NCBI GenBank assembly: GCA_016212585.1
Contig: JACRFU010000075.1
Location: 1 to 37,444 of the forward strand
From: Candidatus Magasanikiibacteriota bacterium
GTDB lineage: Bacteria > Patescibacteriota > Patescibacteriia > Magasanikbacterales > UBA10146
Direction of reading: 5' to 3'
Length of the DNA: 37,444 nt
The translations under genes were made by a program, and so were the position numbers. Numbering within the stretch: position 1 is the stretch's first letter; each line of letters opens with the position of its first letter. This document shows positions 3,978 through 21,634 of this stretch, piece after piece. The notes under the pieces were generated by a model. That model saw only the letters and a list, made by a program, of their open reading frames with translations. It did not search any database and was not told where the DNA came from.

Positions 3978-4000
3978 AATCAGCGCCAACCAACATATTT

Positions 4001-7556: not shown

Positions 7557-7586
7557 ATAGCCAACGTTATTTTATGATTGAACACA

Positions 7587-7805
7587 TTATGTGTTCACGA
7601 TTTCTTCAGAAGTCTTACCTACTTCTTCCAATGCTTTATGAATATCCGCCCATGGAATTTCACGCTCGGCGGTCAAACTAGCCATACCTGTTTTTTGATC
7701 AATTTGAACATCCTTTACGCCGGGCAAATCTTTGAGCACATCGGTGCTCAATCCCACGCACGAGTGGCATTCAATGTTCGTAATGCGGAATTGTTTGGTA
7801 ACCAT
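7587..7805 (-). CDS. copZ: HMA-domain metallochaperone (CopZ-like)
   Basis: 72 aa with a ferredoxin-like HMA pattern and a CxxC site. The context is slightly atypical: ITNIECHSCVG instead of GMxCxxC. It lies immediately upstream of copA on the same strand. Confidence 0.75.
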   Translation of the reverse strand: MVTKQFRITNIECHSCVGLSTDVLKDLPGVKDVQIDQKTGMASLTAEREIPWADIHKALEEVGKTSEEIVNT

Positions 7806-7806
7806 A

Positions 7807-8001
7807 TTATTTAATAAAAATTAATTTAAAAAGTATTATATTAGCCGCGATAATTCCCACAACAAAAGCAACTACAGCACCAAAAATAAACGCGAATTTT
7901 GAGGAAAAATTTCCATTGGATTGAGATCCAGACACAGAAGCCGACCCCTGCGCCACATTGGATCGCGAGTCAAACTCTGAATCAAAAGGTATGTGTGTCA
8001 T
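7807..8001 (-). CDS. Small tail-anchored membrane protein, unknown function
   Basis: 64 aa with a Ser/Gly/Asn-rich N-terminus and one C-terminal TM (FAFIFGAVVAFVVGIIAANIILF). It overlaps the upstream gene by 4 nt and is 1 nt from copZ. This packing argues for translation, but no family was recognised. Confidence 0.5.
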   Translation of the reverse strand: MTHIPFDSEFDSRSNVAQGSASVSGSQSNGNFSSKFAFIFGAVVAFVVGIIAANIILFKLIFIK

Positions 8002-9689
8002 ATATTGTGTTTTGGTATTACATTAATATAGCCGCGATACATGCCCATAGAACAACTGAACAAATATCGCCCGGGCTTGTCCGGCGTGAACTCAAGCACA
8101 TTATCTGATTTCCCAGAAATCATCGCGCGCAAACCAAAATCTCTAGCCTGCAAAACACTGGCACACCCAGCCGCGTTTGTCCCATCTATTTCCCACTTCA
8201 CCGGTACCCCCGCTCTCACCGTAAATTCATCCGGTGTATAACCGTAACTATCTACAGTCATCTTTACAATTTGTTGTTTGCTATCAAATCGTACATTTGG
8301 GTCGTTGGCCGCACCATCGCTCCCGGGGTCCGCGGCCACGACCGAGCTTGAATTAAATGAAATCGTTGGCAATGGATACCCCAAAATTGTCAAACCATTT
8401 TGAATATTGTAAAGCCCCAACACCACCACAAGGGCGCCTGCAAACTGAAAAAACAATCTCCCTGCTTTACCTTTGAGCGAACTGGATGCCCAACCAAGCG
8501 CCAAAAGCGCCGGCGCGGTACCCAACGCAAATCCAAATAACAAAAGCGCGCTGGTTACGGCGCTACCGGTGGTAAGCGCGTACAACTGCAACGCCTGTGT
8601 AAATCCACACGGCAAGAAAAATGTAGAGGCTCCAAGCATAAATGGCGCCAAAGGATGCTCACTCTTTTGACCTGCGTCAAGCACTTTGTGCGATAAATCT
8701 TTTGATGCCATATTGGGTAAAATACCCCTAAGCCAAGACGGTGCTATATGAAGCATTTCCAATCCCATAATCAACATATAGAGCGCCGCGATAAGCGAAA
8801 TAACTCCTGTAATCCATTGCGGGAGCGACAACGATTTTCCAAGAAGTCCAATCAACCCACCTAAAACTCCATAGGACACTACGCGCCCTATTACAAACAT
8901 ATATACCGGATACATACGACCTAATCCTGTGGCACTAAACCGCTCATGAAATCGCGCCGCCGAAGAAAGCAAAAGACCTCCCGAAACCGCGATACATGAA
9001 GAGCTCGCGGCAATGAGCCCTATAACAAATACTGCCCAAAAACCCGTATTTTGCCCAATCACAAAACCTGTTTTAAATAGTCCGACCTTAGAAAGTATCC
9101 ACAAAACCCCCACCACAATAACAAAAACTCCAACGAGTTGATTGAAAGAAAGTTTTTGATCTTTTTTCTCACCAATTTCCGCCACAACACGATCCGCGCG
9201 CGCATGATTACCCGCAAGCGAACGAACACAATATCCATCATTCACAATGGCCGACTGTAACACATCAAACGACGGCGCCTGCGCGGAATTATATACCACG
9301 CGTGCCTCACCTTTTGACGCATTCACATTCACCTTGACTACGCCTTCAATTTTCTTAAACTTCCTTTCAATGGTGATTTCACAAGAACGGCACGTCATGC
9401 CATCAACACCGATTTTCAATTCTCCGCACTGTGGCGCACACGCTGTTGACGATTCGCATGGATTCTCTGCGACAGCACCAACTTCATAAACAGCAAGCTC
9501 AATACCATGCTCTTTAAGCACACTATTGATTACTTCTAGATTCATCGAATCTGCAATCACGATACGCGCTTTTTTATGCGATTCATTAATATCTACCTGC
9601 AAAACACTCTTTTGCCTCCCTAGTGCTTCTTTGAGTGTTCCCGTCCAATCTTCTTTACTACATCTAATATGTACTTTAATAACATGCAT
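7998..9689 (-). CDS. Fusion protein: degenerate HMA + HMA (CxxC) + DsbD_2/TauE-like polytopic membrane domain + C-terminal cupredoxin-like domain
   Basis: 563 aa. The first ~70 aa are HMA-like without CxxC. The second HMA has GMTCRSCE. About 6 TMs carry intramembrane Cys (SSSCIAVSGG, FFLPCGFTQALQLY). The C-terminal beta domain has YTPDEFTVRAGVPVKWEI ... AAGCA ... FTPDKPGRYLFSCSMGMYRG, which is a Cupredoxin_1-type pattern. Confidence 0.8.
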   Translation of the reverse strand: MHVIKVHIRCSKEDWTGTLKEALGRQKSVLQVDINESHKKARIVIADSMNLEVINSVLKEHGIELAVYEVGAVAENPCESSTACAPQCGELKIGVDGMTCRSCEITIERKFKKIEGVVKVNVNASKGEARVVYNSAQAPSFDVLQSAIVNDGYCVRSLAGNHARADRVVAEIGEKKDQKLSFNQLVGVFVIVVGVLWILSKVGLFKTGFVIGQNTGFWAVFVIGLIAASSSCIAVSGGLLLSSAARFHERFSATGLGRMYPVYMFVIGRVVSYGVLGGLIGLLGKSLSLPQWITGVISLIAALYMLIMGLEMLHIAPSWLRGILPNMASKDLSHKVLDAGQKSEHPLAPFMLGASTFFLPCGFTQALQLYALTTGSAVTSALLLFGFALGTAPALLALGWASSSLKGKAGRLFFQFAGALVVVLGLYNIQNGLTILGYPLPTISFNSSSVVAADPGSDGAANDPNVRFDSKQQIVKMTVDSYGYTPDEFTVRAGVPVKWEIDGTNAAGCASVLQARDFGLRAMISGKSDNVLEFTPDKPGRYLFSCSMGMYRGYINVIPKHNI

Positions 9690-9704: not shown

Positions 9705-10250
9705 TTATTTTTTAAATAGATATTTTATTGCGGCCGCAATACCCGACATAAGAAGCAGTACCGTCAAGAGCATAATCAAACCGCTCGCCCATCCAAAACC
9801 CGCGTTCAACCCCACCAATCCATAACCACTCCCCATCATACCATAGCCTCGACCCCAATTTTGATTGAATGAACCACCCCTCATTGATTGATTGTAAAAA
9901 CCGCTCATCATACCCATCATTCCCATACCAACCGCATCACCGCAGTACCATCTGCGTGCCATTAAAATATGCATTTGTTTCAAATTTTCAGAACCCTCGC
10001 CGCCCAAAACTTGCTCCATATTTTTATGCGCTTGTCCAGGCATCATCTGTTCCATATAATAATCACCCATTTGTTCAAGCTGGTCTTGGCTCAACTGCCC
10101 GCATGGAGCGCCTTGGCTGATCAATAACTTTGCACTTGCAAACTCGTCGGTGCTCGCAACAGGCACATCAGCGGCGGCAAAGACGCCTGAAACAGAAAAA
10201 AACGCAACCGCAAATACGACTACAAAACTAAGACGTATATTTTTGTTCAT
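9705..10250 (-). CDS. Secreted/membrane-anchored Met- and Gly-rich protein (candidate Cu(I)-binding)
   Basis: 181 aa. Signal peptide (FVVVFAVAFFSVSGVFAAA), Met-rich tracts (YYMEQMMPGQAHKNMEQ, GMGMMGMMSGF, GYGMMGSGYG) and a C-terminal TM. No family was recognised. The metal-binding role is inferred from Met richness and operon context. Confidence 0.55.
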   Translation of the reverse strand: MNKNIRLSFVVVFAVAFFSVSGVFAAADVPVASTDEFASAKLLISQGAPCGQLSQDQLEQMGDYYMEQMMPGQAHKNMEQVLGGEGSENLKQMHILMARRWYCGDAVGMGMMGMMSGFYNQSMRGGSFNQNWGRGYGMMGSGYGLVGLNAGFGWASGLIMLLTVLLLMSGIAAAIKYLFKK

Positions 10251-10289: not shown

Positions 10290-12353
10290 TTAATCCGATA
10301 ATTTTGCCTCAACTCTCTTTAGAAGAACCGCGTTAGTGGCAACAATAATAGAAGAAGCGGACATCAAAAGCGCGGAAATTTCCGGACGTAGAGAAATGCC
10401 AAATGAAGTATAAAATACTCCGGCCGCGACTGGGATGGCGAGCACATTATAAATCGCCGCCCAAAAAAGATTTTGCTTCATCTTCACCACAGTTGCCCTG
10501 CTTAAACGGATTGCCGCCACAATATCGTACGGATCGGATTTCATCAGCACAATATTGCCGGTTTCTACAGCAACATCGGTGCCAGCGCCGATAGCAATTC
10601 CTATATCCGCTTGAGCTAACGCCGGGGCATCGTTAATACCATCACCTACCATTGCCACAAATTTTCCTTCTTCTTGGAGTTTTTTAACATATTTTGCTTT
10701 GTCTTCCGGCAGGACATGCGCGAAATAGCGTTTAATCCCCAAATCATTGGCGACTTTCTTTGCTACTTCTTCATGATCTCCGGTTATCATCGCTACTTCA
10801 ATTCCCATCTCCTGCAATATAGCCACCGCTGTTTTTGCAGTTGGCTTGACCTCGTCGGCGATGCCCGCTGCGCCGATAATTTTTCCGTCAACCGCCACGA
10901 TGCTGATAGTGTTTCCATTAGACAAAAGGCGGTCTATTTCCGTTTTCATTTTTCCGAAATCAATTTTATTGTCAATCATTAAACGCTCGGTCCCGGCCAA
11001 AACAATTTTTCCGTCAATTTCCGCTTTTATTCCATGCCCGCCGAGGCTCTCAAATTTTTCCGTTTTTTTATTTCTAAATTCCAATTTTTTATTCTCTGCC
11101 TCTTTAATGAGAGCGGCGCTGATAGGGTGATTGGAACTGGTCTCCACAATCGCGATTATTTCTAAAACCTGACTTTGATTGTAACCTTCGGCCGCCACAA
11201 TCTCTGTCACTCTTGGTTTCCCTTCTGTAAGCGTTCCTGTTTTATCAAGAACAATAGCGGTTAATTTTGAAGTATTTTCAAGCGTGACCGCGTCTTTGAT
11301 TAAAATATTATGTTTGGCGCCAATTCCCGTGCCAACGGCAATGGCCGTCGGTGTGGCCAGCCCCAAAGCATCCGGACAAGCAATCACAATCGTAGAAACA
11401 GCAAAAGTTAAAGCGACTAGAGCAGTGTCTCCTGCAATAAAATACCAACCGAAAAAAGTTGCCAGTCCCGAGCCGATCGCTAAAACAACAAGCCACGCCG
11501 CGGCTTTGTCGGCGATTCTTTGCCCCGGCGCTTTGGAATTTTGCGCGGTTTCCACCATTTTAATAATTTGCGCCAAAACCGTATCGCCGCCAACTTTAAT
11601 CGCTTTAAACTTAATCACTCCGGTTTGGTTGATTGACCCGCCGATAACTTTGTCGTTGATTTTTTTGGTAACGGGGATTGACTCGCCAGTAACTAATGAC
11701 TCATCAATTGAAGATTCGCCTTCCATAACTTCGCCGTCAACAGGAACTTTATCACCCGGCTTAAGTATGACAATATCTCCGACCACAATTTCAACGCTGG
11801 GGATTATTACTTCCTTGCCGTCGCGCCAAACTCTCGCTTGCGGAGGAACTAAATCAAATAAAGCCCGGAGTGCCTCGGAAGTGCCGCGACGAGACTTCAT
11901 TTCCATCCAATGACCGAACAAAACAAACGTCACTAAAAGTGCTGCCGCTTCATAAAAAGTTTCAACTCCTTGCTGCATCACGGTTAAAACAACGCTAAAA
12001 AGATACGCCGCCAAAACGCCGGTTGATACCAAAACAGACATATCCAGCTTTCTTTTTTTGAACGAATAATATGTGCCGGTAATAAAAATTGATCCAGCCC
12101 AAAAAACAATCGGCGTGGTGAGAATAAAAAGAAGCCAATTAACAGGAATAGGCGTTGGCAGATTAAGTTTGAAAAAATTTTTACCAACCGGCGAATATAA
12201 AAATATGGGAATGGATAAAATTAAAGAAATCCAAAATCGACGGCGCATATCCGCTTCCATCGCTTTTGCTGTCTGGGGATTGGTCATCGCAGCTTCGTGA
12301 TTCATGTGCGACATTTTGGACATGTCGTGCCCCGCGTGATTTATTGTTTGCAT
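10290..12353 (-). CDS. P1B-type heavy-metal ATPase, CopB-like, with His/Met-rich N-terminus and an unusual CPD transmembrane motif
   Basis: 687 aa. N-terminus is MQTINHAGHDMSKMSHMNHEAAM with no HMA domain. Motifs: TGES, IACPDALGLATP (codons tgt-ccg-gat confirmed on the minus strand), [18 protein letters not shown], and C-terminal YNVLAIPVAAG and LLMSASSIIVATNA. Confidence 0.88.
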   Translation of the reverse strand: MQTINHAGHDMSKMSHMNHEAAMTNPQTAKAMEADMRRRFWISLILSIPIFLYSPVGKNFFKLNLPTPIPVNWLLFILTTPIVFWAGSIFITGTYYSFKKRKLDMSVLVSTGVLAAYLFSVVLTVMQQGVETFYEAAALLVTFVLFGHWMEMKSRRGTSEALRALFDLVPPQARVWRDGKEVIIPSVEIVVGDIVILKPGDKVPVDGEVMEGESSIDESLVTGESIPVTKKINDKVIGGSINQTGVIKFKAIKVGGDTVLAQIIKMVETAQNSKAPGQRIADKAAAWLVVLAIGSGLATFFGWYFIAGDTALVALTFAVSTIVIACPDALGLATPTAIAVGTGIGAKHNILIKDAVTLENTSKLTAIVLDKTGTLTEGKPRVTEIVAAEGYNQSQVLEIIAIVETSSNHPISAALIKEAENKKLEFRNKKTEKFESLGGHGIKAEIDGKIVLAGTERLMIDNKIDFGKMKTEIDRLLSNGNTISIVAVDGKIIGAAGIADEVKPTAKTAVAILQEMGIEVAMITGDHEEVAKKVANDLGIKRYFAHVLPEDKAKYVKKLQEEGKFVAMVGDGINDAPALAQADIGIAIGAGTDVAVETGNIVLMKSDPYDIVAAIRLSRATVVKMKQNLFWAAIYNVLAIPVAAGVFYTSFGISLRPEISALLMSASSIIVATNAVLLKRVEAKLSD

Positions 12354-13090: not shown

Positions 13091-13378
13091 TCATTTATTA
13101 GACAAAACATAAAGTTTAATCAATTCGCTGATTGTTTTGGACTCTTCTTTACCATTTATCTGATGTTTAACATGGGAACGCAAATGATTCTCAATAAGAA
13201 AGGCGTCAAGACTTTTGAGCGAGCGTTGAATAGAACGGGTCTGCTCAAGTAATTGGGTACAGTACAGTTCTTGATCAATAGCCTTAATAAGACCTTCCAA
13301 CTGGCCCCGAATTATTCTTGCTCTGTGAAGAGCCCTTTTTTTGAGTTTTTGATTTACCATGACAGGTTGATGAAACAT
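13091..13378 (-). CDS. CsoR/RcnR/FrmR-family (DUF156) metal-sensing transcriptional repressor with an H-C-H-H ligand fingerprint
   Basis: 95 aa. Family core: RARIIRGQLEGLIKAIDQELYCTQLLEQTRSIQRSLKSLDAFLIENHLRSHV. Candidate ligand positions are His3, Cys40, His65 and His69, with spacing C+25=H and H+4=H. Confidence 0.85.
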   Translation of the reverse strand: MFHQPVMVNQKLKKRALHRARIIRGQLEGLIKAIDQELYCTQLLEQTRSIQRSLKSLDAFLIENHLRSHVKHQINGKEESKTISELIKLYVLSNK

Positions 13379-13402: not shown

Positions 13403-13431
13403 ATCATATACCCCCGCCCCCTATTTGTCAA
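13403..13431 (-). promoter_or_regulatory. Strong sigma70-type promoter with a C5-G-C5 tract operator in the spacer, upstream of the CsoR/RcnR-family gene
   Basis: The minus strand reads TTGACA (13431-13426), a 17-nt spacer AATAGGGGGCGGGGGTA, then TATGAT (13408-13403). The spacer holds an 11-bp G/C tract flanked by the AT-rich inverted triplets ATA/TAT (13408-13424). The ATG is at 13378. A second TTGACA lies 20 nt further upstream. Confidence 0.6.
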
Positions 13432-13466: not shown

Positions 13467-13937
13467 TTATTTCACATTCCATTTAAAAACACGCTCGGGA
13501 GCTTCTCCAATATCTCTTATTCTTAATTCAAAATATCTTGGTATGGTATTAAAAGGAGCAAAAAATAATGTTCCGCTCCGGTGATGCCCGCCAGGTCCTG
13601 ACCCAGTCCAGCTCACTGGCTTATACTCGTTGGATTGATCATCCAACAGAATAGATTGTTTTACCAAATCATCGTCCAAATCCACGGTATGGGTACTAAG
13701 ATTGATATCAAATTGTAACGGAACATTTAGCTCTATTTTTGCCGGGGTCACCTCAATATTTACCCCCCTTTGTTCGTCCACACGGCTTTCAAACGCGGCA
13801 TCAAGCGATGCGCTGGCGGCAACATTTGGTCTTGCAGATATTTTTTTTGATGTAAGCGTATTGCGTAAAATCAAAATAATGATTGCCACACTCACCGCCA
13901 TCAACACCACCCAAAAAATCATCGTTCGTGTTTTCAT
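13467..13937 (-). CDS. Membrane-anchored extracytoplasmic protein, unknown function (GPGGHH loop)
   Basis: 156 aa. N-terminal signal anchor (IFWVVLMAVSVAIIILIL), a beta-rich ectodomain, and a WTGSGPGGHHRSG loop. It overlaps the upstream gene by 4 nt. No family was recognised. Confidence 0.6.
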   Translation of the reverse strand: MKTRTMIFWVVLMAVSVAIIILILRNTLTSKKISARPNVAASASLDAAFESRVDEQRGVNIEVTPAKIELNVPLQFDINLSTHTVDLDDDLVKQSILLDDQSNEYKPVSWTGSGPGGHHRSGTLFFAPFNTIPRYFELRIRDIGEAPERVFKWNVK

Positions 13938-14371
13938 AGTATTGATTTCTTAAACATAAACAGCTTGCGAGCAATAAAAATTATTCCTCCTATGTTAAAC
14001 GCAAGTCCAATCCAAAATAACCGTATCTGGTAGTGAGCTATAAAACTCAAGGCTCCGGCGATTCCCAATATCGGAGCAATGTTTGCCAGATAGTGCGCGC
14101 AACAAGATATCATCGCGGCGGTTGAGGTTGTGCCTGATACCGCCAATACTTTCCCAGAATCGCGCCGTTCACGCACGGCGTCTTTTAAAAACATATACAA
14201 ACAGATTTGTATGCCAAAGCCTAAAGCCAAACTAACAATATAGTACCAAAAATCGCCAAATTGTTCTTTAGTGAATCTCCATCCAGAGACAAGAGTTAAA
14301 ATAGAAAAATAAAAAACCAACAACATCACGCTTGCCGCCAATCCGTACAATATTGGTTTGAAATACTTCAT
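13934..14371 (-). CDS. Four-TM membrane protein with an intramembrane SCCAH motif
   Basis: 145 aa with four predicted TMs. The motif AAMISCCAHYLANIAPILG lies at the start of TM3. It overlaps both neighbouring genes by 4 nt. No family was recognised. Confidence 0.6.
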   Translation of the reverse strand: MKYFKPILYGLAASVMLLVFYFSILTLVSGWRFTKEQFGDFWYYIVSLALGFGIQICLYMFLKDAVRERRDSGKVLAVSGTTSTAAMISCCAHYLANIAPILGIAGALSFIAHYQIRLFWIGLAFNIGGIIFIARKLFMFKKSIL

Positions 14372-15051
14372 TTTAACTTCGCCAATTCATCCACGAGTTG
14401 GTTATTATGAATCGCCATTCTTGGATCATCATATACATGCTGGACAATTCCCTCTCTATCTATAATAACATAACTATGCCCGGGCAAAGACCCAAAATGC
14501 ATGGATGATGGCGTGGTGAGCACACCAAAATTATTGGAAACTTGTTTGTCTGTGTCAAACACTACCGTTGCCTTAGCTAATTCCGGCATTTTTTTAACGG
14601 CGCTTTGCCAATCTTTGGCAGAGTCAACCACTATAGATAGGACTACGGTGTCCGCGTTGTTCAATCTGTTGTCGGAAGCGAGTTGGACAATTTGTTCCCA
14701 GCACGCGGGATAACACATTAACCCCTCATTGAAAAAAAGAACGATCTTTTTGCCTTTGAGACTCTCTTTGCTATAGGTTTTGCCATCTTTATCAACAAAT
14801 GCAAAGTCAGGAACGGATTTTCCGACTAAAGCGTCAATACCCGCGGTAGAGGCTTTGCCTCCATTCCCGGAATGATGTCCCGCTATGCCATCTTGCGATT
14901 CTTGCGTTTTAGCAGTAGCAGTATTCTTATTTTCTTTTTCCGCGGCACTGCTCAAAAACCAAATCGCGGCAACTACTATAATGGTAAACGAAGCAATACC
15001 TGCCAGAATAACCGAATTTTCATTCTTGTCGTGGTGTGTCTTTTTGCTCAT
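14368..15051 (-). CDS. Membrane-anchored thioredoxin-fold protein (redoxin/AhpC-TSA-like) with CxxxC spacing
   Basis: 227 aa. N-terminal TM (VILAGIASFTIIVVAAIWFL); GKKIVLFFNEGLMCYPACWEQI, where Cys-Y-P-A-Cys is CxxxC rather than CxxC; and a cis-Pro-region-like LPGHSYVIIDREGIV. The CxxxC plus downstream His resembles the Sco1/SenC pattern, which is inference only. Confidence 0.65.
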   Translation of the reverse strand: MSKKTHHDKNENSVILAGIASFTIIVVAAIWFLSSAAEKENKNTATAKTQESQDGIAGHHSGNGGKASTAGIDALVGKSVPDFAFVDKDGKTYSKESLKGKKIVLFFNEGLMCYPACWEQIVQLASDNRLNNADTVVLSIVVDSAKDWQSAVKKMPELAKATVVFDTDKQVSNNFGVLTTPSSMHFGSLPGHSYVIIDREGIVQHVYDDPRMAIHNNQLVDELAKLK

Positions 15052-15907
15052 ACTTTTCTTTTTTAAATAAGTAAATAGTTTTGGCTATTAAACCGATGAA
15101 CAATAATAAAAACAGTGCCGCCCACGCGTATTCCGGCAAGAGAGTGATGAATCCTCGTACGGAATTAAATAAGTTAGTGAGATATATATTTACGTCAACC
15201 TGCAACGACGATTGCATGGTAAGCCTATTGGAAAATGCGAGGCTCATGGTTACTACAGCCATTACCATGAACATTATGCCTGAAATAAATTCGCCGATTG
15301 TCAAACTAACTTTTACTGTACCCAATGAATACGAAATCGGCTTACGCATACCCATAAATTTCTTTGTTATCGCGCCTTTATCCAGGAAAGAAGCGATAAA
15401 AAACAAAGGGATTACCATGCCAAGCACGTAACTCAATGTATAGAGTACTCCCCAAAAAATCGATCCGGGTAAAGCCGATAACGCTAACACGCCGGCCAAC
15501 ACCGGCGCGCAACAGGTGGTGGCAATTCCGGAAAATACGCCCAACATAAAAACAGAAAATGGATGATGATTCTTGAGCGTCGGACTCACATGAAAGGGCA
15601 AGGTAAAGTGCCTGCCTGTAAGGAGCAACAAACCAAGAATCATCAGAAAAATACTACCAAAAACAAAAATGGTATTATGATTTTTGCTTAATAACTGCCC
15701 AAATGCGGCAGAACCCAACCCCAGAGGCAAAAAAACCAAAAGGATGCCCAAGAAAAAAATAAAAGTCATTACAAAAACTTTTTTGCGCTCCCGAAATATT
15801 GAGCCGAGGTAAGATGGTAACAACACCGTAATACAACACGGCGCGAAAAGCGCCGCCACACCAGCTACAAATGCCGCCACCAATGAGGTGCCAATGAGTA
15901 CATTCAC
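15020..15907 (-). CDS. CcdA/DsbD-like thiol:disulfide transmembrane electron-transfer protein (DsbD_2-type)
   Basis: Polytopic protein with vicinal or intramembrane Cys in TM1 (LFAPCCITVLLPSYLG) and a later TM (TTCCAPVLAGVLALS). The track ORF extends to 16033 but overlaps the DUF2933-like gene by 119 nt and translates a poly-Lys run. An in-frame GTG at 15907, 8 nt after that gene's stop, gives a start right before TM1. The start is uncertain. Confidence 0.7.
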   Translation of the reverse strand: MNVLIGTSLVAAFVAGVAALFAPCCITVLLPSYLGSIFRERKKVFVMTFIFFLGILLVFLPLGLGSAAFGQLLSKNHNTIFVFGSIFLMILGLLLLTGRHFTLPFHVSPTLKNHHPFSVFMLGVFSGIATTCCAPVLAGVLALSALPGSIFWGVLYTLSYVLGMVIPLFFIASFLDKGAITKKFMGMRKPISYSLGTVKVSLTIGEFISGIMFMVMAVVTMSLAFSNRLTMQSSLQVDVNIYLTNLFNSVRGFITLLPEYAWAALFLLLFIGLIAKTIYLFKKEKYEQKDTPRQE

Positions 15908-15914
15908 AAAATTA

Positions 15915-16193
15915 TTATTTGATATCTGTTGATATTTCTTTTTCTTTTTTTTCGCCGCCGGATTTGCAACAACCACCACCCGCGGATTTATTGTCAGATT
16001 GCCCGGAATGTCCATCTTGGCCGTGTCCACCATGCCCCTTCATCATAAAAACATGCAAAAGAGGACATGCGATAACAAAAAGCCACACTAAAGAGTTGCC
16101 CCCTAAATTAGGAAACAATCTTGGCAAAATAATAATGGCGGCTACGACCGCGATACCTATGCCGAGCATAGTGGAAAGTTTTGGAAACTGCAT
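15915..16193 (-). CDS. Small membrane protein resembling DUF2933 (CPLLH-FMM-GHGGHG motif) with a Gly/Cys/Lys-rich tail
   Basis: 92 aa with two TMs. The motif VIACPLLHVFMMKGHGGHGQDGHSG matches my recollection of DUF2933 proteins found in heavy-metal clusters. The tail carries GGGCCKSGG. Confidence 0.6.
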   Translation of the reverse strand: MQFPKLSTMLGIGIAVVAAIIILPRLFPNLGGNSLVWLFVIACPLLHVFMMKGHGGHGQDGHSGQSDNKSAGGGCCKSGGEKKEKEISTDIK

Positions 16194-16197
16194 ATGA

Positions 16198-16731
16198 TTA
16201 ACTCTTTAAATTAAACGAATTAAAATTATATTGAGGTGTTATTTTACATGCTCCATACAATTGTCTATAAATATTTTCAATAAGCCAATAAATAGACGCG
16301 AATAAAAAAATTAAGCTTATCACTTTTAATTCCAACCCCTTAAAAGGCAAGGACATAAGCGCAAATGGCGCGCCAATGAGCGCCAAAAGCGGGGCTCCGC
16401 ATGTTGGGCACCCGGAAGCAACAATGCCTCCAAACGCACCACTTGCGCCCAATGCCGTGCCAGTAGCCGCCTTTCCTTGCTTAATAATATCTCTCCGCAA
16501 AAGCCACACCGTGGCGTACAAGCCAAAAAATATTGAAACGAGCAAAGTGAGCACAACAGACAAAATAGTAAACCACGCGCCGTTCATAAGCGCGTACGCG
16601 TAGATGCTTTTGCCGGTAATGTTAAATATCATCAAATAATACGAAATGCCAAACATGACAAACCCCGCGGCGAGCGCCGTCAAAAAATATCGTTTTCTTT
16701 TCAATGAGGAAAAAAGTATTGCAAAAAACAT
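16198..16731 (-). CDS. Polytopic membrane protein with an intramembrane GCPTCG motif, unknown family
   Basis: I prefer the ATG at 16731 (MFFAILFSSLKRKRYF...), which lies 1 nt after the stop of the upstream thioredoxin-like gene. The track start at 16782 would overlap that gene by 50 nt. Motif: GAFGGIVASGCPTCGAPLLALIGAPFALMSLPF. Confidence 0.65.
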   Translation of the reverse strand: MFFAILFSSLKRKRYFLTALAAGFVMFGISYYLMIFNITGKSIYAYALMNGAWFTILSVVLTLLVSIFFGLYATVWLLRRDIIKQGKAATGTALGASGAFGGIVASGCPTCGAPLLALIGAPFALMSLPFKGLELKVISLIFLFASIYWLIENIYRQLYGACKITPQYNFNSFNLKS

Positions 16732-16732
16732 A

Positions 16733-17581
16733 TTATTTTTTTGGAGTAGCGACACCGCTCTTTGTTTGCGCGGACGGATCAATTATTTTTCCTGTTTTTA
16801 AATCTTTGTAGACACCCATTGACGCTACTCCTTTATCAAAAATATACGAGTTATTTTTTACCACACCGACTTGTGGCCAAACCTTGAGCAATCCCTGATA
16901 CTCCTTTACGTCTCCCGTAAGCACAAAAGTTGGCACAAGAAATATTTTGTAAATTTCTAAGAGGGTTTTAGCTTCTGGAGTGTTTATGTCAATAATTTTT
17001 GTCTTGGAATTAAGGCCAAATTGAGAGAGTATCGCCTGATGTTTTTTTACATCATAGCAAGTACCGCATGAAGAATCAGTAATCAATGCCAATTCCGTCC
17101 TGCCCTTTATTTCGCCAGTCGCGACAGACACATACGGCCCGCCGATTTGCCTCAAAACAAAGGTATCGCCATCTATACTGCCTACGCGCGAGAGCGACGT
17201 CTTCAAATCAGCGTTTTTTTGAACCTCCCCGCGCAAAATAATCGTCGGCAATTTATCTATCTTATATTTGGCAATCAGTGTTTTTGCTTCTTCATCGTTT
17301 CTTTCTATAGCGCGATGAGAAGACAACACAACATTTGTCTTAGAAAAATTTTTCAGCATCGGCGCCACATCAAAACAATCCGCGCAACTTTTGTCTTGTA
17401 TCGTTATCGCATCTATCCGCGCCGGACGCGCAGCTTCTTTATTTTCAGCTATCTTGGTCTTGACTATGGAGTTCGCGCGCGTCATAAACAAAATACCCAG
17501 ACTCGAGCCGCCAAGCACAATGGCAAAAAAAACCCCCACTATCCAAAAATTTATGGAAACGTTCGCGTCAGAATTTTGCAT
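16733..17581 (-). CDS. Membrane-anchored protein with two tandem thioredoxin-fold (CxxC) domains
   Basis: 282 aa. N-terminal TM (FWIVGVFFAIVLGGSSLGILFM). Two homologous ~110-aa halves each carry a CxxC (DKSCADCFDV; DSSCGTCYDV) and a cis-Pro-like element (KLPTIILRGE; FLVPTFVLTGD). Confidence 0.75.
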   Translation of the reverse strand: MQNSDANVSINFWIVGVFFAIVLGGSSLGILFMTRANSIVKTKIAENKEAARPARIDAITIQDKSCADCFDVAPMLKNFSKTNVVLSSHRAIERNDEEAKTLIAKYKIDKLPTIILRGEVQKNADLKTSLSRVGSIDGDTFVLRQIGGPYVSVATGEIKGRTELALITDSSCGTCYDVKKHQAILSQFGLNSKTKIIDINTPEAKTLLEIYKIFLVPTFVLTGDVKEYQGLLKVWPQVGVVKNNSYIFDKGVASMGVYKDLKTGKIIDPSAQTKSGVATPKK

Positions 17582-17608
17582 ATTTTAAAGATTACTCAAA
17601 ATATAAAC

Positions 17609-18031
17609 TTAACAACCCCCAACTTGATTCGGCAGGCCTTGTCCAGAACCTGAAGGCACACCAACAGCGGCTGGCGAAGACTTAAAATCTCCAGATTTTA
17701 ATTTACTATACAGTGACGCAGTCTGAACGGTCTGGAGTATAGAAAGCAACGCTAACACACCTAAAACAACACTCACTGTGGCACTCCCCCACGACAAAGG
17801 CGCGCGGTGCTGTTTGTTGATACTCATCAAAATTTCGTTCTTCAATTCTTCCAACACTGCGCCTTCTGCTGGTGGAACACTCTTAAAATTTTCATGATCT
17901 TCGCTCGCAACAGAATATTCTGTAACATTGTTAGAATTATCATACATTTTTTGGCCATGAATTGAGTCATGGGCGCAACAAGATGATTTTGTCTCCGCCT
18001 CTTCATTATTTTTGTGTATATGCGTTGTCAT
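17609..18031 (-). CDS. Single-pass membrane protein with an N-terminal His/Cys-rich segment (SSCCAHDSIHG) and a C-terminal LPNQVGGC tail
   Basis: 140 aa. One TM (ATVSVVLGVLALLSILQTV), a Gly/Ser/Pro-rich C-terminal linker, and a terminal ...GLPNQVGGC-stop confirmed in the DNA. No family was recognised. Confidence 0.6.
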   Translation of the reverse strand: MTTHIHKNNEEAETKSSCCAHDSIHGQKMYDNSNNVTEYSVASEDHENFKSVPPAEGAVLEELKNEILMSINKQHRAPLSWGSATVSVVLGVLALLSILQTVQTASLYSKLKSGDFKSSPAAVGVPSGSGQGLPNQVGGC

Positions 18032-18076
18032 ATAAATGTATGTTAAAAAATAAGTATTTAATGTATTGATCTTGCG

Positions 18077-18865
18077 CTAGCAGCCACCAACTTGTCCGGG
18101 GAGCTTCACCTCACTTGGCAAAGGCGCGCTTTTGCTGTCCGCGCTGTATTGAGGAACTTTTAAGGTAAGCAGTAATGCAGCAACATCCGGCGTATACTGC
18201 CCACTCACCAATTGTTTTGAAATCTTATCAACCATTGCTTTGGGGAAATAACTGCCTTTCCAGCGCGCCAATTCACGCAAAATCTGATCATCGGTATACT
18301 CTAACGCGTGTTTCTCCAATAAATACGCCGCCAGACCGCGCATGGCTTGAGAATGCGCGCAACCGCACGCCGCATCGCCATTTTGCTGTATAAGAGCCGT
18401 AGCTCCGCAACAAAACTCACAAGCAATTTTTGTGCCCACATTAATGTATCGTTTTAACAAATCACCGGAGAGTTGGATTTTTTTACTGCCATACGTGGGA
18501 TCAAAGTCTTTCATGATATTCATAGATTGAGGGACGTTCGCAAAATCTACCACCAACTCATTTCCATATACTTCTGGCACGCCTTGAGCAAGCGCCAGTT
18601 TTATCGCGTCTTGCCCCACATTTCCTGTCAAACCTCTGTTGGTGCCGACATTTAATTTTACACTTAACTTAGTGAGAAAATTATTTGATTGCACACCGGC
18701 AAACTCTCTGCTTTTTGAAAGGACAAATTGATTGGTAAAAAGTGAAATGGTTATTACTACGAGCAAAACACTATTAATGGTTGAACGTCTTTTCAACCAT
18801 GACGTACCATGACGTGAATAATACGCCGATTCTCTTTTGTCTGATTCTTTTGGTATTTCATGCAT
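18077..18865 (-). CDS. Membrane-anchored extracytoplasmic Cys-cluster protein (CEFCCG...CGCAHSQAM) with a C-terminal LPGQVGGC tail
   Basis: 262 aa. N-terminal TM (INSVLLVVITISLFT), a Cys cluster KIACEFCCGATALIQQNGDAACGCAHSQAM, and a terminal ...KLPGQVGGC-stop confirmed in the DNA. No family was recognised. Confidence 0.65.
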   Translation of the reverse strand: MHEIPKESDKRESAYYSRHGTSWLKRRSTINSVLLVVITISLFTNQFVLSKSREFAGVQSNNFLTKLSVKLNVGTNRGLTGNVGQDAIKLALAQGVPEVYGNELVVDFANVPQSMNIMKDFDPTYGSKKIQLSGDLLKRYINVGTKIACEFCCGATALIQQNGDAACGCAHSQAMRGLAAYLLEKHALEYTDDQILRELARWKGSYFPKAMVDKISKQLVSGQYTPDVAALLLTLKVPQYSADSKSAPLPSEVKLPGQVGGC

Positions 18866-18883: not shown

Positions 18884-18906
18884 AGCTACTACACAGTATA
18901 GTAGCT
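18884..18906 (-). promoter_or_regulatory. Palindromic operator-like site 2 (AGCTACTA-CACAGTA-TAGTAGCT), 19-41 nt upstream of the 262-aa gene
   Basis: 8-bp perfect inverted repeat with a 7-nt centre. The core TACTACACAG-T-ATAGTA is identical, apart from one central base, to the site upstream of the BlaI-like gene. On the minus strand it is followed by a T-rich run, so it could also act as a weak terminator for the M56 gene. Confidence 0.5.
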
Positions 18907-18977
18907 TTTCATTAAAATGTCAAATCTGGTCAAAAAATCTTATCCACAAGTCAAAATTTCATTCGGCGGCAAACCCA

Positions 18978-20030
18978 TTAAGGCAATTGACAAGAGTCCA
19001 CACTTTTATACGCAACATGCCTCATTGAGCAACGTTGATAATAACTATCGACTTTGCACATAGTACCGCTTAATTGAGTAAGTTCAGATGAAATACAGCT
19101 ATTTTCATAAGAACCAAACGCCTTTGAAGTGTCTGTCAAAAAAACAAACAAAAGAAGAGACGCAATTATGATTGATGACATACCAAGCAAAAATCCTCTG
19201 CCAAACAATCCAAACCTCGGAATATAATTGTCATCGGACAGCCTATTGACTCGTTCATCTATGACTGAACTAAAAAAAGACAATGCGAGTCCCGCGCGTA
19301 TTATATTTTTTTCTTCTCTTTGAGCCACTTTAAAAATTGCCCGCGCCAGAATTGATTTGTTCAAAAAATTATTCGTCGCCAGCTCATCCGCGGCCAGTTC
19401 GGAAAATGTTATGTATTTTTTTATAATTGTCTTTATTCCCGGCACAAAAAACAATACGCGTTGAAAATATTTCAAGACAAAAAGCCTTAATGGATCATGA
19501 GAAATAAGATGGTGCCGCTCGTGCAAAAGCACAGCGCTTAATTCAGCATATTCTAAAATATCAGTCAAGCCATTTGCAATACAAATTTTTGATCGTACAA
19601 TACCAAAACAAAAAACTATAGGCTCTTTACTTCTTATCTCCACAACCCTGCCCGGCGCGATACCAAGACTATCAAGCGATCTTTTGAGTTTTGAAGAATG
19701 AGTTGTTTTGGATAATTTTAAATAATCTATTGAGTATTTTCTTGTGCGTATCATCAAACTTACCAAGGTATACAACGCAAACCCCAAAAACGAAGTGGCA
19801 AAGATCCCCAACGCCCCCAAAGCCGCAAAAAGATAAGGATGTGAAGCAAGCGAAGCCATTTGAGAACATCCGCACGTCGTTTTAATTTTGTGTGTTATCA
19901 TTGGCAGATACAACCAAATTTTCTCGTAAATTTTAAAAAAAGCCATAGTAAGCAGGCCAAAAATAATACCAATTAAAAAAATGGCTTGTATAAAAGCTTT
20001 ACCTGTCTTTTGAGCAAATGGCGAGCGCAT
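18978..20030 (-). CDS. BlaR1/MecR1-like M56-family membrane metalloprotease/signal transducer. It lacks a penicillin-binding sensor domain and has a short Cys-rich C-terminal ectodomain.
   Basis: 350 aa. HExxH motif (LLHERHHLISHDP) within a Peptidase_M56-like region and multiple TMs. The first loop contains TTCGCSQMASLASH. After the last TM there are only ~55 aa, with 4 Cys (YENSCISSELTQLSGTMCKVDSYYQRCSMRHVAYKSVDSCQLP). Its start is 1 nt after the BlaI-like gene stop. Confidence 0.8.
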   Translation of the reverse strand: MRSPFAQKTGKAFIQAIFLIGIIFGLLTMAFFKIYEKIWLYLPMITHKIKTTCGCSQMASLASHPYLFAALGALGIFATSFLGFALYTLVSLMIRTRKYSIDYLKLSKTTHSSKLKRSLDSLGIAPGRVVEIRSKEPIVFCFGIVRSKICIANGLTDILEYAELSAVLLHERHHLISHDPLRLFVLKYFQRVLFFVPGIKTIIKKYITFSELAADELATNNFLNKSILARAIFKVAQREEKNIIRAGLALSFFSSVIDERVNRLSDDNYIPRFGLFGRGFLLGMSSIIIASLLLFVFLTDTSKAFGSYENSCISSELTQLSGTMCKVDSYYQRCSMRHVAYKSVDSCQLP

Positions 20031-20031
20031 A

Positions 20032-20418
20032 CTACTTTATAAACTTTTTTAATTTTTCCTTCCATCGGCCGGATTGTCGCGCGTCTGATTTTTCAATAAT
20101 ATCAAGAAATTGCGCGACCGCCACATCCCCATAAGTCTTAATAAAATTTTTAATTATCTTCTCGGAAGCATTTTCCAAAAAAGATTTTTTATCATTCACG
20201 GGAACATATAAAAAAGCGCCGCTTTTGTCCATTCTCCGTTTGAGCACCCCCTTATCGCTCAAACGGGCCATAACCGTCATTATGGTGGTATAGGCGATTT
20301 TTCTTTTTTTGCTCAACAGAGCCAGAACATCTCTCACATTAGCTTGTCCCGCTTCCCAAACTATATCCATAATTTCCGCTTCTAAATCTCCAAATATTTT
20401 TATTGTATTTCGCACCAT
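20032..20418 (-). CDS. BlaI/MecI/CopY-family winged-helix transcriptional repressor
   Basis: 128 aa. Penicillinase_R pattern: LGDLEAEIMDIVWEAGQANVRDVLALL...IAYTTIMTVMARLSDKGVLKR. It has no C-terminal CxCxxxxCxC metal site, so it is not a classical CopY. Confidence 0.85.
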   Translation of the reverse strand: MVRNTIKIFGDLEAEIMDIVWEAGQANVRDVLALLSKKRKIAYTTIMTVMARLSDKGVLKRRMDKSGAFLYVPVNDKKSFLENASEKIIKNFIKTYGDVAVAQFLDIIEKSDARQSGRWKEKLKKFIK

Positions 20419-20429
20419 AGATGTAATTA

Positions 20430-20450
20430 GTTACTACACAGAATAGTATA
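20430..20450 (-). promoter_or_regulatory. Operator-like site 1 (GTTACTACACAGAATAGTATA), 12-32 nt upstream of the BlaI-like start codon
   Basis: Core TACTA-CACAGAA-TAGTA (20432-20448) is a 5-bp inverted repeat with a 7-nt centre. It matches site 2 at 16 of 17 core positions. Confidence 0.5.
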
Positions 20451-20515
20451 ACAAAACCCGAGAAACCTTGCAAGCCATGCAATTTCATGGCACACTGTCC
20501 ATATACTAATTTCCC

Positions 20516-21634
20516 ATGCCAAAAAAAATCCTCATGCTCTCGCTCTCAGCAGGAAGCGGGCATGTCCGCGCGGCTGAAAGTCTTCGTGAAGAAGCACACA
20601 ACTCGTATCCAGACGCGATTGTTGAACATCGTGATATTATTGAATTTGTACATAAACCTCTCAAACTGATATACCGGGATTTTTATGTTTTTATGACCAA
20701 AAATGCCCCTCTCGTATGGGGGTACCTTTACAAAACCGCAAACTCGCCTATGGTGCGGGAAACGATCCACGCGACCTCACACATTCAAACACTTCTGGCA
20801 GCTGGTCTTGCGCGCTTTATAGATGTTTTCAAACCAGACATGATTGTGTGCACACATTTTGTATGCGCTGAAATCGCAACTTCCATACTCAAGGAGCGCG
20901 GTATGGCAACACCGGTAGCAATGGTGATTACCGATTATCAAATACATCATCTTTGGATGGTTGAGGGAGTGTATCATTATTTTGTGGCGACACAGACAAT
21001 AAAAAAAGATTTAATTGCCGCCGGAGTTGCTGCCGAGCGTATTACCGCAAGCGGTATACCAGTATCCACCGCAGTCATTGCTACTGAACGATCACCGCAT
21101 TTATATGAACATTATGTGGTAGAACAAGGGCGTCCTATAGTGCTCGCGCTCTCCGGCGGGTTTGGTTTGCAAGATACCTCAACAATTGTTCAAACGCTCA
21201 TGGCAAGCAAATTGCCACTTCAAATATGCGCCGTAGCTGGCTCCAACAAAGCACTTAAGGAAAAATTAGAAGCGCTTCAATCACCATCACATATTACGGT
21301 GCGTATATATGATTTTGTGCGTGCCATACATGAACTCTACGCGCTCGCGGATGTTGTTATCAGTAAAGCAGGGGGACTGACGGTAACCGAATGCATCACG
21401 CGCGGAGTGCCACTCATTATCACCGAACCTCTGCCCGGACAAGAAGCCGCAAACGCGAATTTCTTGCAGACACACAAGGCCGCGCTTCAAATCAAAAAAA
21501 CTCCTGATGTGCTCAATAAAATTCATCGCATTCTCACCAACGCGGCACTTCGCGGTGAACTCACAAAAAACATGAAAAAAATAGCGCGTCCTTATGCGGC
21601 TCGCGCGATTCTTGAGCAAGTCATCAAAGAGTAA
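20516..21634 (+). CDS. MGDG-synthase-family (UgtP-like, GT28) diacylglycerol glycosyltransferase
   Basis: 372 aa. N-terminal ILMLSLSAGSGHVRAAESL, an MGDG_synth-type motif, and a C-terminal GT-B half with ISKAGGLTVTECITRGVPLII..PLPGQEAANANFL. Confidence 0.85.
   Translation: MPKKILMLSLSAGSGHVRAAESLREEAHNSYPDAIVEHRDIIEFVHKPLKLIYRDFYVFMTKNAPLVWGYLYKTANSPMVRETIHATSHIQTLLAAGLARFIDVFKPDMIVCTHFVCAEIATSILKERGMATPVAMVITDYQIHHLWMVEGVYHYFVATQTIKKDLIAAGVAAERITASGIPVSTAVIATERSPHLYEHYVVEQGRPIVLALSGGFGLQDTSTIVQTLMASKLPLQICAVAGSNKALKEKLEALQSPSHITVRIYDFVRAIHELYALADVVISKAGGLTVTECITRGVPLIITEPLPGQEAANANFLQTHKAALQIKKTPDVLNKIHRILTNAALRGELTKNMKKIARPYAARAILEQVIKE

Follow-up and report, generated by a model that had tools for sequence, protein, structure and literature searches.

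In Staphylococcus aureus and Bacillus licheniformis, the BlaI/BlaR1 and MecI/MecR1 systems combine a winged-helix repressor (PF03965) with an M56 membrane protease (PF05569) encoded by the adjacent gene; their operators overlap promoters, their proteases carry a C-terminal transpeptidase sensor, and their cargo is a beta-lactamase or PBP2a. Such a penicillin-binding protein (PBP) sensor is the exception rather than the rule, because only about 6% of roughly 15,000 M56 proteins carry a transpeptidase domain (PMC13492132). The commonest M56 architecture is a protease with a short C-terminal region of predicted disorder, as in CenIR of C. difficile and the BlaI/BlaR pairs of M. tuberculosis and M. 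abscessus (PMC13492132), whose signals are unknown and whose cargo relates to the cell envelope or to energy metabolism. A copper-sensing BlaI/BlaR pair is already known. Specifically, in the presence of copper the Synechocystis sp. PCC 6803 protein PetP, a member of the M56 proteases that lacks a sensor domain, degrades PetR, a regulator of the BlaI family, and conserved Met residues in the outward loop of PetP have been proposed as ligands (bioRxiv 10.1101/2020.07.31.226407). Here we describe a related gene pair in a 37,444-bp stretch of contig JACRFU010000075.1 from a Candidatus Magasanikiibacteriota bacterium (hereafter the window). The module, all of whose genes lie on the minus strand, is a variation on the BlaIR-like proteolytic switch and no new principle. 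It comprises a Cys-free repressor, an M56 protease that lacks a PBP domain and has conserved cysteines in its predicted outward segments, and a palindromic candidate operator that stands before the gene pair (site 1) and again before the genes that follow it (site 2) (Table 1). We propose, with a little better than even confidence, that this BlaI/BlaR-type switch, its repressor being inactivated by cleavage, senses copper-type (thiophilic metal) stress outside the cytoplasm.

The repressor matches Penicillinase_R (PF03965) with 86.1 bits against a cut-off of 22.6 (E 2.8e-24, residues 10-108). Its top matches among PDB sequences are M. tuberculosis 2g9w, BlaI and MecI, and its residues 10-116 align to MecI. 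The original prediction, made from the DNA alone, had described a repressor without the CopY-type C-terminal Cys cluster; in fact, the protein contains no cysteine at all. The CopY-type CxCx4CxC metal site is accordingly absent, and TIGR02698, although the best NCBIfam match, reaches only 52.5 bits, far under its cut-off of 121.95. CopY/CopR of Firmicutes belongs to the same winged-helix family, uses a TACA/TGTA-type box, controls copper export (a cargo met here in sister genomes) and has a CxC motif, which in CopY is a Cu(I) motif. However, CopY senses Cu(I) itself through its C-terminal CxCx4CxC and is not cleaved, whereas here the repressor is Cys-free and the CxC is located on the partner protease, in a segment predicted to lie outside the cytoplasm. 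A single nucleotide separates the repressor stop codon from the protease ATG. Across 27 repressor orthologues, a YGDVAVAQF motif is near-invariant. HMMER sets D106-I107 of the repressor opposite the scissile N-F of MecI, and the invariant AVAQ103-F104 lies three residues earlier.

The protease scores 40 bits against PF05569 (Peptidase_M56; cut-off 31) and has the catalytic motif HERHH, i.e. H170ExxH174, together with E211xxxD215, the gluzincin HExxH and ExxxD arrangement also found in BlaR1. Neither Pfam nor NCBIfam detects a PBP or transpeptidase domain, and NF000326 stays at 29.4 bits, its cut-off being 400. Among 5.8 billion proteins screened for homologues, about 70 full-length orthologues (330-370 aa) were found; those with a source name are all Patescibacteria (Falkowbacteria, Uhrbacteria, Komeilibacteria and the Parcubacteria group). 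The transpeptidase domain (PF00905) is absent from every one of them, and they show M56/M48 domains only. Because the orthologues form a coherent full-length family of similar size without a PBP domain, a truncated BlaR1 is ruled out. The proposal of a protease without penicillin-binding sensor therefore holds for the orthologues as well as for this copy, and the doubt first attached to it, that orthologues might carry normal PBP sensors and this copy be simply truncated, proved unfounded.

A profile scan with the protease family, taking one genome per species, yielded 28 related Patescibacteria loci (L001-L028). Several of the records are titled 'uncultured Gammaproteobacteria' (L003, L007, L009, L018-L020, L023-L025 and L027) or 'Saccharibacteria' (L017 and L022), labels that appear unreliable because gene content and best matches equal those of the Patescibacteria loci. 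As far as the cargo could be identified, the genes after site 2 include neither a beta-lactamase nor a PBP in any of the 28 loci, and the window's cargo has neither. Membership of PF03965 and PF05569 is what would favour a canonical response to beta-lactams or cell-wall damage with the PBP sensor acting in trans or lost; given this cargo and the absence of a transpeptidase domain throughout the orthologues, we find such a response scarcely credible. The gene order also departs from that of the Bla and Mec systems, with repressor followed by protease and the cargo downstream rather than divergent.

In the AlphaFold2 model of the protease (predicted local distance difference test score, pLDDT, 75.8), the membrane part and the protease core are well modelled, and the closest solved folds belong to two cryo-EM chains of BlaR1, 8exp and 8exq (E 4e-4); the protease-family profile gave just a weak HtpX match among PDB sequences, although the fold search did recover BlaR1. 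The hydrophobic segments predict three transmembrane (TM) helices with a cytoplasmic N-terminus, one helix fewer than in BlaR1/MecR1, and two Cys-containing segments would therefore face outward. The first is a loop, TTCGCSQMASLASH, which holds C53-x-C55...H64 and would occupy the position of the BlaR1 EL1 loop, which transmits the signal and whose displacement starts signalling (PMC9834060). The second is the C-terminal tail, whose cysteines are C312, C325, C334 and C347 and which also contains H338. Among 40 aligned proteases, C53 and C55 are invariant, as are the catalytic H170, E171, H174, E211 and D215, and H64 is conserved in 95%. The four tail cysteines are 90-95% conserved, whereas in the columns between them the commonest residue reaches only 12-30%. 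Exactly four tail cysteines are present in 31 of the 40 sequences, and the CxC in all 40. The cysteines that had been pointed out in an extracytoplasmic loop and tail are thus a conserved feature of otherwise variable segments, through which the signal may be sensed.

On the other hand, the cysteines could be structural, forming disulfides that stabilise a small outward module, while the signal is another ligand or an envelope perturbation, as for CenIR. Most M56 proteins have short disordered C-terminal regions and unknown signals (PMC13492132), the tail has no confident AlphaFold2 fold, and distant relatives (L067, L077, L140 and Solirubrobacterales) keep a single loop Cys with a varying number of tail Cys. 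We nevertheless consider a merely structural role improbable, as the cysteines are the sole conserved positions in a hypervariable tail and the cargo is consistently Cys-, Cu- or thiol-related. Separately, in distant M56 relatives of about 310-370 aa from Solirubrobacterales and Thermoleophilaceae (L029-L056; 63-74% G+C), the first outward loop retains one Cys (AAC, ALC or SYC, with Q or R next), and the last TM helix has a QxCM motif. TACTA-N7-TAGTA is found beside the gene pair in a few of these loci (L031, L032 and L046) despite the high G+C, and L029 has DsbD- and redoxin-like genes downstream.

The 17-mer TACTAT(T/A)CTGTGTAGTA is present twice in the window, and the coordinates and distances first given for the two copies are correct. 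The core of site 2 is nested in a longer palindrome, AGCTACTA-N7-TAGTAGCT. At up to 3 mismatches, these two copies are the only ones in 37,444 bp, where 0.08 are expected and none of 100 shuffles reaches the count. A looser pattern adds 2-mismatch matches only, and those compared with the list of open reading frames (ORFs) lie inside long ORFs. In about 400 kb of L001-L027, TACTA-N7-TAGTA occurs upstream of blaI in 17 loci and 40-300 nt after the M56 match in all 27, and no third position was found. The fear that the motif is common without relation to promoters is thus not realised in the window or in these loci. Among the 25 related candidate phyla radiation loci that include blaI and its upstream region, 17 carry an exact site 1 and three more a copy with 1-2 mismatches; six loci form a subgroup in which site 1 is missing wherever the upstream region is covered. 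Three loci without site 1 (L017, L018 and L024) have in common an element of about 45 nt, GGTTATGGACAnCCGAAGATGAGTACGGTAnACTAnACCTGTCGC, located about 60-100 nt upstream of blaI. In L028, both sites are 18-nt variants with an N8 centre, TACTATACTATTGTAGTA and TACTACACTAACATAGTA (about 7560-7580 and 9080-9110), and this joint change of spacer fits one protein binding both.

The family consensus of the operator is CTACTACA-N3-TGTAGTAG, i.e. it contains TACA-N3-TGTA, although the left half-sites in the window read TATT and TATA and not TACA. The mecA operator is GACTACA-TT-TGTAGTA (PMC1935004, Table 1), and its 7-bp half-sites are those of the family consensus, with a spacer of 2 bp compared with 3 bp here (PMC1935004, PMC7253601). 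The site was originally said to differ from the TACAnnTGTA boxes of this repressor family. This stands for the spacer, whereas the consensus half-sites are of mecA's TACA/TGTA type, and the operator is therefore not truly foreign to the BlaI/MecI boxes.

Both sites overlap the -10 boxes of predicted sigma-70-like promoters, P1 for the repressor-protease operon and P2 for the genes beyond it. The -10 box of P1, TATACT, has its last 4 bases in common with site 1, and the P1 layout is repeated in the site-1 consensus of 18 genomes. P2 is the top promoter-scan match of the region, and site 2 always has TTGACA at the correct distance upstream, with the -35 box and the operator-internal -10 box conserved in 28 sequences. 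The duplicated 17-mer, predicted as a shared operator, is thereby recovered as a phylogenetic footprint at both positions in 27 related loci. Two attempts to extend its reach were unproductive. When metagenome contigs were scanned with the 19-mer CTACTAYANNNTRTAGTAG for unlinked regulon members, 8 of the 80 matches listed adjoined blaI or M56 genes and the others looked like chance or unrelated occurrences, so that the scan was uninformative on distant targets. Divergent control of the glycosyltransferase gene at 20516..21634 (plus strand) is unsupported because this gene has no counterpart beside the pair in any related locus.

Upstream of the P2 -35 box stands the element TGTGGATAA, whose reverse complement, TTATCCACA, we take to be the consensus DnaA box. 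In 26 of 29 sources it precedes site 2 by 35-46 nt (by 35-37 nt in 24 loci), with no change of orientation, and in most loci it stands 6-9 nt before the P2 -35 box; L028 is without it. Its reading as the site of a locus-specific second regulator is weakened because copies elsewhere in related loci also precede promoters of the TTGACA type (at 3520 on the minus strand in L005 and at 3485 in L015). These bacteria may use it as a general element upstream of promoters.

Site 2 also has features of a terminator that site 1 lacks. It can fold into a hairpin of about 10 bp with a T-rich run behind it, and its flanks are complementary yet differ by genome (agc/gct, aacc/ggtt, atacc/ggtat, aaaccc/gggttt and cttacc/ggtaag). 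The mean flank extension is 4.0 bp at site 2 versus 0 at site 1, where no flank complementarity was found in 18 of 18 loci. Paired cells make up 80.5% of the site-2 flanks, compared with at most 50% in slid controls. The flank covariation score is 0.231 versus 0.144 when shuffled, with 0 of 500 shuffles as high; we take this covariation as suggestive, since shuffling is known to make significance look too high when sequences are related. In line with these patterns, RNA folding gives a hairpin of -11.6 kcal/mol (z -3.25) for site 2 and a weak one of -5.3 kcal/mol (z -0.96) for site 1. The site-2 hairpin thus probably terminates the repressor-protease transcript, whereas P2 transcripts, which would start within the 3' arm of site 2, would form no hairpin and so escape termination. 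It might be argued from the terminator-like score, the T-rich run, the covarying flanks and the stable RNA hairpin that the palindrome is no operator but the protease gene's intrinsic terminator, its likeness to site 1 being incidental. This is very improbable, since the 17-bp core is kept in sequence, beyond pairing, across 28 genomes and recurs upstream of blaI without hairpin, flank pairing or T-rich run. Additionally, both copies overlap -10 boxes, their half-sites are those of the mecA operator (PMC1935004), and L028 has the spacer altered at both sites together. Taken together, site 2 is probably bifunctional, acting as operator and terminator.

Nine closely packed same-strand genes follow site 2 (18865..13467). 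The original prediction of about 5.4 kb of Cys-motif and thiol-redox genes under its control agrees with this set, whose orthologues follow site 2 elsewhere too. The first gene encodes a membrane-anchored 262-aa protein with invariant C149, C152, C153, C167, C169 and H171. It has 404 homologues, none informatively named, those with a name being hypothetical proteins; Pfam and NCBIfam give no match even at E 10, and its AlphaFold2 model is confident (pLDDT 83.5) but has no fold match in the PDB. This protein and the adjacent anchored 140-aa protein both close in an invariant LPx(Q/M)VGGC, with orthologues in about 14 loci; a literature search for the C-terminal MVGGC/QVGGC motif gave nothing relevant. 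In L017, L018 and L020, the polytopic CPxC membrane protein is fused with the CxxCC/CGC domain of the 262-aa protein (about 425 aa; 3655-4941, 10695-11975 and 10736-12001, respectively), which suggests that the two act together. The thioredoxin-like protein has orthologues after site 2 in loci of types A and C, and orthologues of the DsbD/CcdA-type transporter are 65-81% identical in type A loci. The reading frames of the last two genes overlap by 4 nt, suggesting co-transcription.

Among the 28 related loci, the thiol-redox cassette follows site 2 in 14, as in the window. In seven others, site 2 precedes genes for an HMA-DsbD_2-Cupredoxin_1 protein, a small (CopZ-like) HMA protein and a CopA-type P-type ATPase, the last being 61-68% identical (47% in L008) to the 783-aa ATPase of the window. 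The first cargo gene of L002 belongs to PF02583 (CsoR/RcnR family) with a C...H...C pattern and is followed by genes for an HMA-DsbD_2-type membrane protein and an HMA protein; the cargo of L001 includes a DsbA-like protein, and that of L027 DsbA-like and CPxC-type proteins. In six loci (type C), the first gene after site 2 encodes an 87-97-aa protein ending in ...SMVGGC, a homologue of the window's 140-aa protein, and next come thioredoxin-like proteins and a protein that joins the CPxC membrane protein to the 262-aa domain. The sequence of L007 stops just past site 2.

This cargo bears directly on the nature of the signal. The same proteolytic switch could respond to the extracytoplasmic thiol-disulfide state (oxidants, electrophiles or failure of the reducing pathway) and not to a metal. 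The six outward cysteines would then act as a redox switch, perhaps kept in working order by the very DsbD/CcdA and thioredoxin-like proteins that the system controls. The P2 cassettes of the window and of 14 related loci indeed consist of thiol:disulfide oxidoreductases and Cys-motif proteins, DsbA-like cargo occurs in L001 and L027, and an even number of conserved cysteines suits disulfide chemistry. However, the CopA, CopZ-like and HMA-DsbD_2-cupredoxin genes under the same operator in seven genomes, and the PF02583-family gene in L002, are metal-specific, and a CxC with a His is a typical soft-metal ligand set. As copper itself oxidises thiols, the metal and redox readings overlap. We regard a purely thiol-disulfide signal as rather unlikely, though likelier than the other alternatives.

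Several observations weigh against copper sensing. The ligand is read solely from the cargo genes and the conservation of the cysteines, and the cassette in the window is redox-oriented and not metal-specific. The pLDDT falls below 50 at residues 54-59 and 304-350, i.e. in the CxC loop and the entire tail; the model therefore gives no structural support for a metal site and was uninformative as a test of whether loop and tail cysteines cluster. Four tail and two loop cysteines make an even number, compatible with three structural disulfides. The N-F scissile pair of BlaI is left unaligned by HMMER, D-I of the repressor standing opposite. The 19-mer is not diagnostic alone, since 8 of the 80 metagenome matches listed adjoin blaI or M56 genes. 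The window's own HMA-DsbD_2-cupredoxin and CopA genes (9689..5205) are without the operator. Finally, the H3/C40/H65/H69 set of the window's PF02583 repressor is presumably nearer to RcnR (Ni/Co) than to the C-H-C set of CsoR.

In the copper reading, which we still prefer, a dimer of the Cys-free repressor would occupy the two 17-19-bp operators and repress both operons, site 1 covering the -10 box of P1 and site 2 that of P2. The protease would expose two outward segments, the loop with C53-x-C55...H64 and the tail of about 48 aa with its four conserved cysteines, and Cu(I), Ag(I) or copper-driven thiol oxidation would engage these loop and tail cysteines. The adjoining TM helices would relay the change to the gluzincin site in the cytoplasm (H170ExxH174 and E211xxxD215), upon which the protease may cut the repressor, possibly at the invariant AVAQ-F, and so derepress both operons. 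The output of P2 in the window would be the nine-gene envelope thiol-redox cassette of the DsbD/CcdA-type transporter, thioredoxin-like and redoxin proteins and Cys-cluster proteins, and in sister genomes the CopA, CopZ-like, HMA-DsbD_2-cupredoxin and DsbA-like genes.

Table 1. Features of the module and of the neighbouring genes in the window
Feature	Coordinates	Strand	Basis or details
Promoter P1 (predicted; repressor-protease operon)	20445..20473	-	Promoter scan: TTGCAA, 17-nt spacer, TG-TATACT
Candidate operator site 1, TACTATTCTGTGTAGTA (putative autoregulation)	20432..20448	-	13 nt between site and repressor ATG at 20418
BlaI/MecI/CopY-family winged-helix repressor, 128 aa	20032..20418	-	PF03965
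M56 membrane zinc protease, 350 aa, no PBP domain	18978..20030	-	Pfam, orthologues, alignment, AlphaFold2, fold search
TGTGGATAA element (reverse complement TTATCCACA) upstream of P2 -35	18940..18948	-	Single copy in window
Promoter P2 (predicted)	18895..18923	-	Promoter scan: TTGACA, 17-nt spacer, TATACT, 11/12 matches
Candidate operator site 2 (core 18887-18903, TACTATACTGTGTAGTA)	18884..18906	-	21 nt between core and ATG at 18865
Membrane-anchored 262-aa protein, first P2 gene	18077..18865	-	CExCCG...CGCAHS invariant; C-terminal LPxQVGGC
140-aa single-TM protein ending LPNQVGGC	17609..18031	-	Sequence
Membrane-anchored protein with thioredoxin-like domains (CADC, CGTC)	16733..17581	-	PF00085, PF13098
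Polytopic CPxC membrane protein with GCPTCG	16198..16782	-	Sequence
DUF2933 protein, His/Cys-rich	15915..16193	-	PF11666, E 3.3e-11
DsbD/CcdA-type transmembrane thiol-electron transporter	15020..16033	-	PF02683, NF001419
Membrane-anchored AhpC/TSA-Redoxin protein	14368..15051	-	PF00578, PF08534
145-aa membrane protein (SCCAHY) and 156-aa anchored protein, last two P2 genes	13467..14371	-	Sequence
PF02583 (CsoR/RcnR-family) repressor	13091..13378	-	H3, C40, H65, H69
P-type ATPase with His/Met-rich N-terminus	10290..12353	-	CPD; keeps YN(x)4P, M(x)2SS
Met-rich protein	9705..10250	-	Sequence
HMA-DsbD_2-cupredoxin protein	7998..9689	-	Domains
CopZ-like ORF of about 70 aa, MVTKQFRITNIECHSCVG...	about 7589..7804	-	Sequence only; between HMA-DsbD_2-cupredoxin and CopA-type ATPase genes
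783-aa ATPase with HMA, CPC, YN(x)4P, M(x)2SS	5205..7556	-	Domain and motifs

Beyond the cassette, the window holds further metal-related genes. No convincing further copy of the operator was found in the window before the CsoR-family gene, the ATPase genes or the HMA-DsbD_2-cupredoxin gene. The PF02583 repressor gene has a predicted promoter of its own (13431..13403; TTGACA, 17-nt spacer, TATGAT) with ATAGGGGGCGGGGGTAT in the spacer, a possible G-tract operator. The ATPase with the His/Met-rich N-terminus has CPD at the transmembrane metal site, where copper pumps usually have CPC or CPH, and a 90%-identical copy stands after the thiol-redox cassette in L015. The HMA, CPC, YN(x)4P and M(x)2SS features of the 783-aa ATPase form what we take to be the signature of a Cu/Ag-type pump.

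Of the described systems, PetR/PetP is the nearest precedent and functional relative of this pair. There as here, a BlaI/CopY-family regulator without the CopY Cys motif is co-transcribed with an M56 protease without penicillin-binding domain, the outward loop that immediately precedes the TM helix running into the protease domain contains the candidate ligands, and the operator is an inverted repeat with a 3-bp centre (for PetR GACA-N3-TGTC, also written GACN5GTC). PetP has previously been reconstituted in E. coli. However, the half-sites differ (TACTACA here versus GACA), and the operator in the window is TACTA-N7-TAGTA. PetP, with four TM helices and conserved Met residues, lacks a Cys-rich tail, whereas the present protease has three predicted TM helices, a CxC...H loop in place of the Met pair, and a four-Cys tail. 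PetR, moreover, also activates petJ and controls only four genes in an electron-carrier swap (cytochrome c6/plastocyanin; petE/petJ), in contrast to the copper export and envelope thiol-redox cargo found here. The likeness to PetP is one of description, with sequence homology established only as shared membership of the M56 family. CenIR and the mycobacterial BlaIR pairs share with this protease the short C-terminal region of predicted disorder but differ in that the conserved cysteines and the cargo here point to a specific class of signal.

The cargo, as distinct from the regulator, invites a second comparison. Scs (suppressor of copper sensitivity) and other DsbD/CcdA-thioredoxin envelope systems are linked to copper tolerance. 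The set in the window likewise joins a DsbD/CcdA-type transporter to anchored thioredoxin-like proteins, a resemblance that we presume to extend to the cargo and not to the regulator; to our knowledge, Scs has no counterpart of the 262-aa and 140-aa Cys-cluster proteins with C-terminal VGGC.

When these elements are joined, a large Patescibacteria clade could rely on the module as its main system for copper and thiol stress in the envelope, in which Cu(I) or copper-driven thiol oxidation is read by six outward cysteines, a 23-bp element serves as operator, -10 box and terminator, and the output includes a new extracytoplasmic relay of VGGC-arm Cys-cluster proteins, the CPxC membrane protein and DsbD/CcdA. 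In this full form the proposal is tentative, and we would not expect every part of it to hold. About 94% of M56 proteases lack a penicillin sensor, and hardly any of these has a known signal (PMC13492132). The present clade offers a clear prediction, with a defined outward Cys/His set, two copies of the operator in each locus, and cargo suggestive of copper and thiol stress. Copper sensing by this protease, if true, would be a second, chemically different mode of metal sensing in the M56 family beside PetP, and, should the joint proposal hold as well, no BlaR-like sensor before this one would have had a defined site for sensing metal or redox state. The analysis also flags a family of 404 homologues of unmatched fold as part of a copper or thiol response. 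Furthermore, it presents a rare case in which a full circuit of sensor, repressor, two operators, promoters, probable terminator and regulon is readable from sequence in uncultivated Patescibacteria.

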